Shown here piece by piece: positions 14,125-20,615 of a stretch of DNA of 38,687 bases. The position numbers and the translations under genes were made by a program. Within the stretch, counting starts at the first letter, position 1, and each line of letters begins with the position of its first letter. Source of the stretch: Escherichia coli (lineage in GTDB: Bacteria > Pseudomonadota > Gammaproteobacteria > Enterobacterales > Enterobacteriaceae); assembly GCF_003334385.1 (NCBI RefSeq), contig NZ_QOWN01000041.1; one strand, 5' to 3'. The notes beneath the pieces were generated by a model. The model saw nothing but the letters and a program-made list of their open reading frames with translations, was not told where the DNA came from and did no database searches.

Positions 14125-15135
14125 ATGAAGGCTGCAGTTGTTACGAAGGATCATCATGTTGACGTTACGTATAAAACACTGCGCTCACTGAAACATGGCG
14201 AAGCCCTGCTGAAAATGGAGTGTTGTGGTGTATGTCATACCGATCTTCATGTTAAGAATGGCGATTTTGGTGACAAAACCGGCGTAATTCTGGGCCATGA
14301 AGGCATCGGTGTGGTGGCAGAAGTGGGTCCAGGTGTCACCTCATTAAAACCAGGCGATCGTGCCAGCGTGGCGTGGTTCTACGAAGGATGCGGTCATTGC
14401 GAATACTGTAACAGTGGTAACGAAACGCTCTGCCGTTCAGTTAAAAATGCCGGATACAGCGTTGATGGCGGGATGGCGGAAGAGTGCATCGTGGTCGCCG
14501 ATTACGCGGTAAAAGTGCCAGATGGTCTGGACTCGGCGGCGGCCAGCAGCATTACCTGTGCGGGAGTCACCACCTACAAAGCCGTTAAGCTGTCAAAAAT
14601 TCGTCCAGGGCAGTGGATTGCTATCTACGGTCTTGGCGGTCTGGGTAACCTCGCCCTGCAATACGCGAAGAATGTCTTTAACGCCAAAGTGATCGCCATT
14701 GATGTCAATGATGAGCAGTTAAAACTGGCAACCGAAATGGGCGCAGATTTAGCGATTAACTCACACACCGAAGACGCCGCCAAAATTGTGCAGGAGAAAA
14801 CTGGTGGCGCTCACGCTGCGGTGGTAACAGCGGTAGCTAAAGCTGCGTTTAACTCGGCAGTTGATGCTGTCCGTGCAGGCGGTCGTGTTGTGGCTGTCGG
14901 TCTACCGCCGGAGTCTATGAGCCTGGATATCCCACGTCTTGTGCTGGATGGTATTGAAGTGGTCGGTTCGCTGGTCGGCACGCGCCAGGATTTAACTGAA
15001 GCCTTCCAGTTTGCCGCCGAAGGTAAAGTGGTGCCGAAAGTCGCCCTGCGTCCGTTAGCGGACATCAACACCATCTTTACTGAGATGGAAGAAGGCAAAA
15101 TCCGTGGCCGCATGGTGATTGATTTCCGTCACTAA
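14125..15135 (+). CDS. adhP: Zn-dependent alcohol dehydrogenase, propanol-preferring
   Basis: 336-aa product [19 protein letters not shown]...; Zn-ADH motifs GHEGIGVV and CGHCEYC; RBS aaaaggagg. Confidence 0.93.
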
Positions 15136-15280: not shown

Positions 15281-15565
15281 ATGAAAATGGCCAATCATCC
15301 CCGCCCGGGGGACATTATTCAGGAATCACTGGACGAACTTAATGTCAGCCTGCGCGAGTTTGCCAGAGCAATGGAAATTGCTCCCTCAACGGCAAGCCGA
15401 TTGCTGACAGGAAAAGCAGCTTTGACGCCAGAAATGGCGATTAAACTTTCCGTGGTGATCGGCAGTTCGCCGCAAATGTGGCTGAATCTGCAAAACGCCT
15501 GGAGTCTGGCAGAGGCAGAAAAAACAGTGGATGTGTCGCGATTACGCCGTCTGGTTACGCAATAA
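15281..15565 (+). CDS. yddM: Xre/HigA-like helix-turn-helix DNA-binding protein
   Basis: 94-aa product [45 protein letters not shown]...; HTH motif evident; start chosen at the internal ATG by recollection of YddM length. Confidence 0.75.
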
Positions 15566-15617
15566 AAAAATGGCACTTTATAAAGCGCCATTTAGAACTG
15601 ATGACAAACGCAACATT

Positions 15618-15715
15618 GCCTGATGCGCTACGCTTATCAGGCCTACACGTTCACTGCAATCTATTGGATTTGAAGGGTTTTCATGCCGGATAAGGCGTTC
15701 ACGCCGCATCCGGCA
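15618..15715. repeat. BIME: two inverted REP elements
   Basis: gcctgatgcgctacgcttatcaggcctac and tgccggataaggcgttcacgccgcatccggca; canonical REP sequences. Confidence 0.85.
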
Positions 15716-15744
15716 TGAACAAAGCCTACGTTGTCTACAATATG

Positions 15745-15776
15745 AAAATGGCGCCTTTTACAGCGCCATTTTCAGC
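15745..15776. terminator. bidirectional terminator between yddM (+) and fdnI (-)
   Basis: aaaatggcgc / cttttaca / gcgccatttt; A/T runs on both sides. Confidence 0.55.
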
Positions 15777-17336: not shown

Positions 17337-20300
17337 TTACGCCTGCTCGATGTTGACTAAGAACGCTTTATATTCCGGCGTTTGCGAGTTTGCATCACCG
17401 ACATTCGGCGTCAGAGTGTTAGCGATATAACCTTTACGCGCGACACCCTCAAAGCCCCAGTGGATTGGAATACCCACCGTTTCAACCTGCTGACCATTTA
17501 CATTCAGCGGTTTCAGACGACGCGTTACCACAGCCACCGCGCGGATAAAGCCACGCTTGCTGGAGACAGTGACACGATCGCCATTATTAATGCCTTTCGC
17601 CGCCGCCAGCGTTTCGCTGATTTCCACAAACTGTTCCGGCTGAGCAATTGCGTTGAGCAATGCGTGCTTGGTCCAGGTGTGGAAGTGCTCGGTCAGACGA
17701 TAGGTCGTACCCACATACGGGAACTGCTCTTTTTTACCCATCCGCAGCGCGTCTTGTTCATACAGACGAACAACCGGGTTAGACACCACGTTCGGATGCA
17801 GCGGGTTAGTGCCCAGCGGCGTTTCAATCGGCTCGTAGTGTTCCGGGAACGGACCTTCCGCCATTTTGTTGATGGCAAACAGGCGTCCCATCCCTTCCGG
17901 CTGCATGATAAACGGCCCGGTTGGCGTACCCGGTGCGGCATTGCCGAAGTCAGGAATATCGTTACCCGTCCACTTGCTGCCGTTCCACTGGATCAGCATC
18001 CGTTTCGGATCCCACGGTTTACCGTTGATATCCGCCGAAGCACGGTTGTACAGCACGCGACGGTTGAGCGGCCACGCCCAGGCCCATCCCAGCGTATTCC
18101 CCAGACCGGACGGGTCGGAGTTATCGCGGTTAGCCATCTGGTTGCCCTGCTCTGTCCAGCTACCGGTGTAGATCCAGCAAGAAGATGCGGTTGTACCGTC
18201 ATCACGCAGATGCGCAAAGCTACTCAGCAACTGACCTTTCTTCGCAATAAGCACGCCATTAGCGTCATAGAGATCTTCCAGCGCGTAGCCGTTGTTCTCT
18301 TTAGCCACTTCGTCAGATTGCGGTTCGTGCGGCTGCTTGTAGTTCCAGCTCATCTTCATCAGCGGTTCTACGCCTTTACCACCTTCGGACTGGTACAGCT
18401 CGCGCAGATGATGGTAGATACCCGCCAGAATTTCACCGTCGTTACGCGCTTCGCCCGGCGCGTCCTGACCTTTCCAGTGCCACTGCAACCAGCGACCGGA
18501 GTTAGCGATAGAACCATCTTCTTCAGCAAAGCAGGTCGAAGGCAGACGGAATACTTCAGTCTGAATAGACGCCGGATCGACATCGTTCGACTCACCGTGG
18601 TTCTGCCAGAAGGTAGAGGTTTCAGTCACCAGCGGATCGATAACCACCATGTACTTCAGCTTGCTCAGGCAGCTCACCACTTTGTTTTTGTCCGGGAAGG
18701 ACGCAACCGGGTTAAAGCCCTGGCAGAAATAACCGGTGACTTTGCCTTCATCCATCATGTTGAAATACTTGATGACGTCGTAGGTCTGGTCCCACTTCGG
18801 CAGCCAGTCATAGCCCCAGTTGTTCTCTTTCTGCGCGGCATCGCCATAGAAAGATTTCATCAGGCTAACGAAGAACTTCGGATAGTTGCTCCAGTAGTTC
18901 ACCTGATCAGCCAGCGTCGCTTTCGGCGTGTTCGCTTCCAGATACGACTGCAAATCAACCTGTTTTTCTGACGGCAGCGTCAGATAACCTGGCAGGCTGG
19001 TAGAGAGCAGGCCTAAGTCAGTCAAGCCCTGAATGTTGGAGTGACCACGCAATGCGTTCACGCCGCCACCGGCCATACCCATGTTACCGAGCAGCAACTG
19101 GATCATCGCCATAGTACGGATGTTCTGCGCACCCACAGTGTGCTGCGTCCAGCCCAGCGCGTACAGGAAGGTGGTTGTGCGATCCGGTGCGCTGGTGGAG
19201 GCCAGCACTTCACACACTTTCAGGAAGTCGGCTTTTGGCGTACCGCAGATGTTTTCAACGACGTCCGGCGTGTAGCGGGAAACGTGCTCTTTCAGCAGGT
19301 TCCACACACAGCGCGGATGAGTCAGTGTTTCATCGCGTTTCGCATAGCCGTTTTCATCGAACTGATAGTTCCAGGACGATTTATCGTATTGACGTTTTTC
19401 AGCGTCGTAGCCGCTGAACAGACCGTCTTCGAAAGCAAAATCATCACGCACCAGCAGGCTGGCGTTGGTGTAATGCTTAACGTATTCGGCGTTGATTTTG
19501 TTGTTTTCGATCAGGTAGCGCAAAACGCCAGACAGGAACGTAATGTCCGTACCGGAACGAATAGGCGCGTAAATATCCGCCACAGAAGCGGTACGCGTAA
19601 AACGGGGATCGACAACGATCAAGGTTGCGTCGTTGTTGTTTTTCGCTTCCATCGCCCAGCGGAAACCGACGGGATGCGCTTCAGCAGCGTTACCGCCCAT
19701 CACCATCACGACGTTAGCGTTTTTGATATCCACCCAGTGGTTGGTCATCGCACCGCGACCAAATGTTGGAGCAAGACTTGCTACCGTTGGTCCGTGTCAG
19801 ACGCGCGCCTGGTTGTCTACCGCCAGCATCCCGAGGGAGCGGGCAAATTTCTGGGTCAGCATCCCGGTTTCGTTGCTGGCACCGGAGGCACACAGCATAC
19901 CGGTAGAAAGCCAACGGTTTACCGTTACGCCCTGCTCGTTCTTTTCAATAAAGTTGGCGTCACGGTCAGCTTTCATCAGCTTCGCAATACGGGAGAATGC
20001 TTCTTCCCAGCTAATGCGCTGCCATTTGTCAGAACCTGGCGCACGATATTCCGGGTAGCGCAGACGGTTTTCACTGTTGACGTAATCCAGCAAACCGGCC
20101 CCTTTCGGGCACAGCGCACCACGGCTTACCGGATGATCCGGGTCACCTTCAATGTGATAAATCGCTTCTCTGGCGTTTTTTGCGCCATCACCCAGGCTAT
20201 ACATCAATAGCCCGCAACCTACGGAACAGTATGTGCAGGTGTTACGGATCTCTTTAGCGCGTAATAATTTGTAGTTTCGCGCCTGAGCCAGTGCTTGCTT

Positions 20301-20384
20301 CGGGGCAAAGCCCAATGCCGCTACTGTTGTTCCAGCCATACCGCCCGCGCAGATTTTAAAAAATTGTCTGCGACTGACGTCCAT
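17337..20384 (-). CDS. fdnG: formate dehydrogenase-N alpha subunit, selenocysteine-containing (in-frame UGA at 19797-19799)
   Basis: Two ORF-track pieces (17337-19748 and 19797-20384) are in the same frame; translation reads ...AVDNQARV-U-HGPTVASLAPTFGRGAMTNHWV...; Tat signal MDVSRRQFFKICAGG; total 1015 codons plus stop. Confidence 0.93.
19752..19796 (-). promoter_or_regulatory. SECIS element directing Sec insertion at the fdnG UGA
   Basis: mRNA UGA-CACGGACCAACGGUAGCAAGUCUUGCUCCAACAUUUGGUC folds as a stem-loop immediately 3' of the UGA, like the fdhF/fdnG SECIS as recalled. Confidence 0.7.
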
Positions 20385-20448
20385 TGCTTTCCTCTTTTTT
20401 CAGGGGTATTACTGCGCGAGGAAACTAACAGTAAAATTCTGAATCTTT

Positions 20449-20462
20449 TTGCGCGAAATCAA
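20449..20462 (-). promoter_or_regulatory. putative FNR box upstream of fdnG
   Basis: Minus-strand TTGAT-TTCG-CGCAA (consensus TTGAT-N4-ATCAA), centred about 71 nt upstream of the fdnG ATG. Confidence 0.4.
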
Positions 20463-20509
20463 AAAGAACATCTGTTTGCCACAAAATAATCCGCCTTCGC
20501 AAATTGACC

Positions 20510-20525
20510 TACCTCAATAGCGGTA
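20510..20525 (-). promoter_or_regulatory. putative NarL 7-2-7 heptamer pair upstream of fdnG
   Basis: TACCTCA-AT-AGCGGTA, a palindromic approximation of TACYYMT-nn-AKRRGTA, about 60 bp upstream of the candidate FNR box. Confidence 0.35.
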
Positions 20526-20615
20526 GAAAAACGCACCACTGCCTGACAGGCCAGTTAAAAAAATGCTATAAAATTCAGCTTAATTTTTAACGGCAAGAGA
20601 GACAAAACAGCGAGC

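Follow-up and report, generated by a model that had tools for sequence, protein, structure and literature searches.

FNR and NarL sites in the divergent fdnG/yddG control region of Escherichia coli and their conservation across Enterobacteriaceae

Introduction

The spacer between fdnG and yddG is a long-studied switch for formate dehydrogenase-N, which it turns on under anoxia if nitrate is available. The closest described systems are the promoters of narG, nirB, nrfA and yfiD. At narG, FNR binds at -41.5 and NarL heptamers lie at about -200, acting through IHF-dependent looping. The nirB and nrfA promoters carry FNR at about -41.5 and a single 7-2-7 site at about -69.5 and -74.5, respectively, and here NarL and NarP mainly counteract repressing nucleoid proteins. 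At yfiD, FNR binds at -40.5 and -93.5, the upstream site being down-regulating. The fdnGHI control region itself was reportedly dissected in primary studies by Li and Stewart in 1992, by Li, Kustu and Stewart in 1994, by Darwin, Li and Stewart in 1996 and by Wang and Gunsalus in 2003.

For the E. coli fdnG promoter, the passage of Babujee et al. (2012, PMC3349551) that cites Darwin et al. 1996 places FNR at -42.5 and the NarL heptamers at -77, -100, -109 and -124. The curated NarL heptamers of b1474 are listed in 17-bp context as AGTGGTG, TACCGCT, TGAGGTA and CGGATTA in the MotifAdjuster supplement (PMC2718512), where TACCGCT and TGAGGTA are flagged as the 7-2-7 pair 3a/3b. The same source names fdnG, napF, nirB and nrfA as the four genes for which 7-2-7 sites have been reported; NarL dimers bind this type of site with high affinity, and NarP binds to no other type (PMC2718512). 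Myers et al. 2013 list fdnG as 'activated by FNR in NO3- and by NarL' (Table 2) and give two boxes at yfiD (Table S6), and a figure legend in PMC4549865 also sets out the narG promoter layout.

Compared with these systems, fdnG shares with nirB and nrfA a class II FNR site and a NarL/NarP 7-2-7 site (7-2-7 status from PMC2718512), but its 7-2-7 site is considerably more distant from the start (-104.5) and has additional single heptamers on either side, at -77 and -124. Like narG, which belongs to the same nitrate-formate respiratory pathway, fdnG needs class II FNR together with upstream NarL at several heptamers; the narG NarL sites, however, are about 100 bp further off and need IHF, whereas NarL at fdnG is fixed 62 bp from FNR. 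We know of no IHF site at fdnG. With the yfiD-type tandem-FNR promoters the likeness is a resemblance only, in that two FNR-type boxes stand about 53-55 bp apart and the downstream one is class II; unlike its yfiD counterpart, the upstream box of fdnG is putative, shares bases with a NarL heptamer and is a strong match in Escherichia alone.

Here we describe a 231-bp spacer that we regard, with high confidence, as the fdnGHI promoter-operator of Escherichia coli, lying back to back with the yddG promoter and activated by FNR and NarL as published. A modest addition to the textbook picture is the finding that the weak CGCAA half-site, the extended -10 element and the 62-bp spacing between FNR and NarL are almost invariant over about 70 species of Enterobacteriaceae.

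Sequence data and methods

The window, that is, the whole stretch of DNA that was analysed, comprises 38,687 nucleotides. Positions in it carry the prefix w where they could be confused with others, and a position g of NC_000913.3 was converted by w = 1567785 - g. The comparative set held one genome per species and was collected with the first 195 residues of FdnG as the query, which yielded 80 loci with 88-100% identity; sequences were aligned with MAFFT. A symmetric FNR matrix was built from 62 ChIP-supported sites of Myers et al. 2013 (Table S6), with the fdnG entry left out. Transcription start sites (TSS) were taken from the SMRT-Cappable-seq data of Yan et al. 2018 (Supplementary Data 2), for which the cultures had been grown in M9 and in rich medium (assumed aerobic), not under anaerobic nitrate conditions. 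The Cappable-seq supplements of Ettwiller et al. 2016 had no entry for the fdnG/yddG region. A simple scan of positions 20300-20700 for consensus sigma-70 promoters and terminators found nothing; it is blind to both promoters described below, because it requires T at the sixth position of the -10 element, which the yddG hexamer TATAAA does not have, and because fdnG is without a usable -35 element.

Locus and source of the sequence

An 801-bp segment around the spacer found matches in 5,414 of 5,426 complete E. coli genomes, with the genes annotated as fdnG and yddG, and several of these matches, K-12 strains included, were 100% identical. Over 400 bp the sequence w20285-20684 is 100% identical to positions 1547101-1547500 of E. 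coli K-12 MG1655 (NC_000913.3), in which fdnG starts at 1547401 and yddG at 1547169. Taken as a whole, the window is not strictly that of MG1655: elsewhere it has 99.85-99.93% identity to an MG1655 assembly over 12.6 kb, and a 178-bp repeat between yddM and fdnI is present in one copy in the window and in two copies in that assembly. The spacer is the known E. coli fdnG/yddG control region itself, not that of a relative, and as such is already known: it is the same DNA as the K-12 fdnGHI control region, and nothing in it differs from what the passage on fdnG in PMC3349551 and the supplement of PMC2718512 give. The initial annotation had read positions 20385-20615 as this control region, and they are exactly the spacer between the two start codons (Table 1). 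The reading frame of fdnG is split at the selenocysteine TGA codon into open reading frames at 19797-20384 and 17337-19748, and a SECIS_3 element (84.3 bits) was detected at 19744-19802.

Table 1. Features of the fdnG/yddG locus in window coordinates; centres with a minus sign are relative to the fdnG transcription start
Feature	Position	Strand	Remarks
fdnG/yddG divergent control region	20385..20615	.	231-bp spacer between fdnG ATG 20384 (-) and yddG ATG 20616 (+)
fdnG CDS, formate dehydrogenase-N alpha subunit	17337..20384	-	In-frame UGA selenocysteine codon; ORF and annotation
yddG CDS, aromatic amino acid exporter, DMT family	20616..21497	+	ORF and annotation
fdnG transcription start	20413..20414	-	5' UTR of about 29-30 nt
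fdnG extended -10, TGt-TAGTTT	20422..20430	-	Starts 25 bp downstream of FNR centre
FNR site TTGATttcgCGCAA (TTGAT-TTCG-CGCAA)	20449..20462	-	Centre -42.5, class II position overlapping the -35 region; published position, conservation
NarL heptamer CGGATTA (complement TAATCCG)	20487..20493	-	Centre -77; curated list
FNR-like box TTGAGGTAGGTCAA	20504..20517	.	Centre -97.5; overlaps the -100 NarL heptamer by 7 bp
NarL/NarP 7-2-7 site TACCGCT-AT-TGAGGTA	20510..20525	-	Heptamers -109 and -100, centre -104.5; curated pair
NarL heptamer TGAGGTA	20510-20516	-	Centre -100; curated list, second half of 7-2-7
NarL heptamer TACCGCT	20519-20525	-	Centre -109; curated list, first half of 7-2-7
NarL heptamer AGTGGTG (complement CACCACT)	20534..20540	-	Centre -124; curated list
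yddG -35-like CTGACA, predicted	20543-20548	+	18 bp upstream of -10
yddG extended -10, TGc-TATAAA (TGCTATAAA), predicted	20564..20572	+	TG 20564-20565, TATAAA 20567-20572
yddG transcription start	20580 (uncertain by 1 nt)	+	5' UTR of 36 nt

Start site and FNR site of fdnG

Only one +1, w20413, reproduces the published fdnG site positions exactly, and since all five of them (-42.5, -77, -100, -109 and -124) fit this single +1, the elements in the spacer are the published ones. The SMRT-Cappable-seq data give a forward TSS for b1474 at 1547371 of NC_000913.3 (Yan et al. 2018, Supplementary Data 2). It converts to w20414, or to w20413 if the value is 0-based, so that this independent start differs by at most 1 nt from the +1 that follows from the published positions. 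In the same table thrL stands at 147, against a curated value that we take to be 148, and forward values are therefore likely 0-based. The comparison with mapped start sites, which the initial annotation had suggested as a check, thus sets its FNR box at -41.5 or -42.5, as the distance from the box centre to w20414/20413 is 41.5-42.5 bp.

That box, TTGAT-N4-CGCAA at 20449-20462, had been described as lying about 71 nt from the ATG, and this is exact, with the centre (20455.5) 71.5 nt upstream of the fdnG start codon. TTGATttcgCGCAA agrees with the FNR consensus TTGAT-N4-ATCAA at 8 of 10 positions. By sequence statistics the box is inconspicuous: the consensus TTGATNNNNATCAA with at most two mismatches has 37 matches in the window against 24 expected, and the matrix score of 10.4, which is relative and not absolute since the training sites had themselves been selected by a matrix, ranks ninth among 38,674 positions, with about 3.5 such scores expected per 38.7 kb. 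This score is below that of the lowest training site (11.7, in a range of 11.7-20.9), and the box does not appear in the thresholded list that Myers et al. 2013 give for the whole genome. The matrix scan gave the annotated box a weak score and picked as the top match in the spacer another one, at -97.5 (15.8); with the -42.5 box only at rank 9 and another box of the same spacer at rank 1, sequence statistics alone do not validate the former. The CGCAA half-site is also used by the ChIP-supported hcp site TTGATTTAGCGCAA (Myers et al. Table S6). Downstream of the box the promoter has an extended -10 element and no usable -35.

NarL and NarP sites

The second element of the initial annotation, a palindromic TACCTCA-AT-AGCGGTA pair at 20510-20525 (plus strand) placed about 60 bp beyond the FNR box, proved exact in sequence and position; the distance from its centre (20517.5) to the FNR centre is 62 bp, and the palindrome is imperfect, its arms agreeing at 5 of 7 positions. 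Read on the fdnG strand, it consists of inverted TACYYMT heptamers with a 2-bp gap, and TACCGCT-AT-TGAGGTA has two mismatches to TACYYMTNNAKRRGTA. The consensus scan recovered the dyad and showed no excess of such sites, since TACYYMTNNAKRRGTA with at most two mismatches has 2 matches in the window and 1.9 are expected.

The proposed fit to the anaerobic, nitrate-induced fdnG promoter was borne out, both elements being the published ones, FNR at -42.5 and the NarL 7-2-7 site. As a quality check, two degenerate regulatory motifs had thus been placed to the exact base from raw sequence where the published sites lie. The earlier reading is incomplete, not wrong: missing from it are the heptamers at -124 and -77, a second and stronger FNR-like box centred at -97.5, and a location for the yddG promoter.

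Conservation across Enterobacteriaceae and within Escherichia

In the comparative set yddG is the divergent neighbour of fdnG in 73 of the 80 species, and most spacers measure about 220-290 bp. TTGAT-n4-CGCAA is present in 75 of the 80. The MAFFT alignment shows TTGATTT-nn-CGCAA to be essentially invariant over about 30 genera, only the two central bases varying, and the fdnG extended -10 element TGtTAGTTT to be nearly invariant over about 30 genera. Wherever an anchored locus has TGnTAnnnT, this motif begins exactly 25 bp downstream of the FNR centre. On the other side, 69 of 75 species have their best 7-2-7 match exactly 62 bp upstream of the FNR centre. The dyad retains its outer TA...TA across genera, and the cross-genus consensus TAACCCT-TA-AGGAGTA is a better fit to the 7-2-7 consensus than the E. 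coli dyad. An ungapped logo anchored on FNR has a further conserved block at -78 to -72, strongest from -78 to -74, which coincides with the TA end of the -77 heptamer and runs a few bases past it; some conservation persists as far as about -66. Flanking positions of the spacer are only about 10-40% conserved. Since the lengths of both 5' UTRs vary widely, the fixed spacings between promoter and operator reflect constraint and not a lack of insertions and deletions.

In a sample of 13 Escherichia sequences, the variable positions lie outside the FNR half-sites and the fdnG -10 element; two lineages carry C in place of T in the -109 heptamer. Conservation of the -124 heptamer across genera is poor, and within E. 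coli it varies at w20535, so that this heptamer is probably of minor importance.

The motifs could also be read as chance matches in an AT-rich spacer, with the functional sites elsewhere, given that consensus matches of such quality are no more frequent in the window than expected by chance. For a length of 231 bp, that of the spacer, the chance expectation is about 0.02 for the FNR box and about 0.01 for the dyad. The sequences are exactly those of the curated sites (PMC2718512 supplement), their positions fit the coordinates given in the fdnG passage of PMC3349551 as well as the independent start site, and their fixed spacing is conserved in about 70 species while the flanks diverge. We consider the probability of this chance reading negligible. 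The placement of both motifs in the spacer is non-random, and its main support comes from curation, start-site data and conservation.

Proposed mechanism of fdnG activation

The protein contacts and the order of events proposed here are drawn from established knowledge of FNR and NarL. Under anoxia, an FNR dimer would bind the weak box TTGATttcgCGCAA at -42.5 and, by class II activation, would recruit sigma-70 RNA polymerase to an extended -10 promoter without a usable -35 element. FNR alone would give little fdnG transcription, the box being kept weak. Nitrate, acting via NarX/NarQ, would lead to phosphorylation of NarL, and NarL-phosphate would bind the inverted heptamer pair at -104.5 and the flanking heptamers at -77 and -124; NarP may occupy the same 7-2-7 site at -104.5. 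Bound NarL would then boost FNR-dependent initiation at w20413 from a fixed helical face. In the opposite direction, yddG would be transcribed from the TGcTATAAA promoter, starting at about w20580.

Two features of the alignment suggest parts of this scheme. The fixed 62-bp spacing, which corresponds to about 5.9, or about six, helical turns, suggests that NarL has to sit on one particular side of the helix with respect to FNR, and the invariance of the weak CGCAA half-site speaks for a box that is held weak to preserve the dependence of expression on NarL.

A second FNR-like box at -97.5

By matrix score the box at -97.5 is far stronger than the one at -42.5. With a score of 15.8 (TTGACCTACCTCAA, 20504-20517) it ranks first in the window, where 0.13 such matches are expected. 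It is also the sole box that Myers et al. 2013 list genome-wide for yddG/fdnG (position 1545292, PatSer 14.43, ln p -12.93), and they mark it as lying at a ChIP-seq peak. The summit of that peak, 1545309 or 1545300, corresponds to w20500 or w20509, which is 1.5-10.5 bp from the centre of the -97.5 box and nearer to it than to the -42.5 box.

Taken together, the higher score, the sole entry above the threshold and the proximity of the summit would favour the -97.5 box as the principal FNR site of fdnG, with the -42.5 box a fortuitous weak match. The summit, however, was rejected as an arbiter of which box is occupied: at 14 other loci in Tables S5 and S6 of Myers et al. the offset between summit and motif ranges from 1.5 to 76.5 bp (median about 33 bp), and with offsets up to 76.5 bp it discriminates neither box from the other. 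The published ChIP tables place FNR on the spacer in vivo, with a summit precision too coarse to name the box. In the 80-species set, a box at the Escherichia position, -97.5, was found in only five loci, all of Escherichia type; in two Pseudocitrobacter loci another, unrelated FNR-like match stands at an offset of its own, and in all other genera the best upstream FNR score is low (median -1.7). The -42.5 box, on the other hand, is kept in 75 of the 80 species at a fixed 25 bp from the -10 element. From -97.5, moreover, FNR could not by geometry supply the missing -35 contact, so this box, strong only in Escherichia, is probably not the activating site. Li and Stewart are said to have noticed the -97.5 sequence in 1992 and to have found it dispensable for anaerobic induction. 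The FNR site given for fdnG in the relevant passage of PMC3349551 is that at -42.5. We therefore hold it very improbable that the principal site is at -97.5 and retain the -42.5 box in this role. That matrix scans of the genome pick the -97.5 box for fdnG is a caution for matrix-based annotation of regulons.

Within the sampled E. coli the -97.5 box has no variable position, and in E. albertii it has one, counts that are not significantly below expectation. Half of the box is a NarL heptamer, which blurs this polymorphism test.

The residual interest of the locus lies in this Escherichia-specific strong box over a NarL heptamer, and in a possible shared control of yddG. The 7-bp overlap between the -97.5 box and the -100 heptamer makes simultaneous binding unlikely, and the box may thus let FNR and NarL compete. 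In Escherichia only, a near-consensus box would have evolved on top of the proximal NarL heptamer, so that FNR without nitrate and NarL-phosphate with nitrate compete for it; nitrate induction would then consist partly in displacing an upstream FNR that is possibly down-regulating, as at yfiD, and the cluster might tune yddG as well. We regard this scenario as improbable, and its novelty would be limited by the finding on the -97.5 sequence that is attributed to Li and Stewart.

The yddG promoter and possible shared control

The initial annotation had expected the same spacer to hold the yddG promoter, in agreement with the SMRT-Cappable-seq start of b1473 at 1547205, reverse strand, of NC_000913.3 (Yan et al. 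2018, Supplementary Data 2), which corresponds to w20580. This start is 8 nt downstream of the TATAAA hexamer, and TGcTATAAA is the best-conserved block on the yddG side, with a weighted identity of about 0.9. From conservation and the published start site, yddG is predicted to have its own sigma-70 promoter of the extended -10 type.

Counted from the yddG start, the centre of the dyad falls near -62.5, that of the -124 heptamer near -43 and that of the FNR-like box near -69.5. The NarL/FNR cluster might be shared and regulate yddG too. The divergent arrangement, kept in 73 of the 80 species, speaks in favour, and of the 49 species in which a yddG extended -10 can be recognised, 35 have its TG 46.5 bp away from the centre of the dyad, although the lengths of both 5' UTRs vary widely. 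This spacing hints at shared control; it is less rigid than on the fdnG side, though, and could be explained by shared ancestry. Two comparisons of one RNA-seq study of Salmonella Infantis show yddG moving the same way as fdnG/fdnH, which is weak evidence; many other genes show this covariation too. Myers et al. count the yddG/fdnG peak among those without FNR-dependent change of expression downstream, and name fdnG as its likely target. In the literature searched, no paper tied yddG to regulation by NarL, nitrate or FNR, and the poor conservation and polymorphism of the -124 heptamer argue against shared control. On balance we think it unlikely that the cluster also regulates yddG, and the same holds for competition at the -97.5 box; the preferred reading remains that of an fdnG switch beside a separate yddG promoter.

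A second, FNR-dependent promoter directed toward yddG, with AATAAT at 20485-20490 (+) as its -10 element and the FNR box at -41.5, was considered and rejected. The mapped yddG start is at 20580 and not near 20497, in start-site data that do not come from anaerobic cultures, and other genera read TAATAG on the plus strand, without the key final T of a -10 element. The curated NarL heptamer at -77 accounts for most of the conservation of the AATAAT block at 20485-20490.

Regulatory sites between fdnG and yddG

The best FNR matrix score of the entire window was obtained for a near-consensus box centred at -97.5 relative to the fdnG start site (+1 at 20413), where it overlaps the curated -100 NarL heptamer. 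This box is listed by Myers et al. (2013) under their FNR ChIP-seq peak. In the cross-genus comparison of fdnG/yddG spacers, no FNR box was found at the -97.5 position outside Escherichia. Two further FNR-like boxes were predicted in the window by Myers et al., both lacking a ChIP-seq peak (see table).

The curated NarL heptamers of fdnG carry natural variants, namely in the -124 heptamer, where a T to G change at 20535 is polymorphic in E. coli, and at 20519 in the -109 heptamer, whose sequence in both strain E69 and E. albertii is TACCGCC. Beyond the curated -77 heptamer, cross-genus conservation continues through about -73 to -66, the conserved bases being TT at -73/-72, G at -69 and G at -66; this block may serve to dock the C-terminal domain of the RNA polymerase alpha subunit, or may belong to a NarL contact of greater length.

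Window coordinates of the features described
Feature	Position	Strand	Remarks
FNR box, near-consensus	20504-20517		TTGAGGTAGGTCAA (fdnG-strand reading)
FNR-like boxes, predicted (Myers et al.)	24676-24689 and 15119-15132		one upstream of narZ, within narU; the other at the adhP 3' end, upstream of yddM
NarL heptamer -124	20534-20540
Conserved block beyond -77 heptamer	20479-20486
SECIS_3 (Rfam RF01989)	19744-19802	minus	84.3 bits
178-bp unit	about 15560-15771		between yddM and fdnI

The fdnG leader and coding region

The fdnG 5' UTR is longer by approximately 50 nt in the Citrobacter and Salmonella loci compared (L007-L023, L031 and L033), the insert, which the E. coli leader lacks, being situated between the start site and the ribosome-binding site. 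Although the sequences diverge, the insert forms a long hairpin of -18 to -30 kcal/mol, and at least one of its base pairs shows a compensatory change (G-C to A-U). The leaders of Intestinirhabdus and Phytobacter are longer still.

Within the gene, the SECIS_3 match adjoins the in-frame TGA that divides the fdnG ORF, and is the selenocysteine insertion element expected for fdnG. In E. coli strain FEA3 (locus L090) fdnG is annotated as a pseudogene with its N-terminus absent; divergence begins exactly at the start codon and the control region upstream is intact.

Strain and taxon assignment

With about 99.9% identity the window is closely related to MG1655, yet distinct from it, because the 178-bp unit with REP-like hairpins occurs in a single copy, versus two tandem copies in the MG1655 assembly NZ_CP032667.1. 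Judging from a coordinate in Table S6 of Myers et al., U00096.2 likewise has two tandem copies.

Two of the compared loci, both on MAG contigs, probably reflect binning errors: a 'Citrobacter sp.' contig (L005), whose FdnG is 99% identical to that of E. coli and whose spacer is of the E. coli type, and a 'Delftia acidovorans' contig (L034) with an fdnG-yddG locus of enterobacterial kind.
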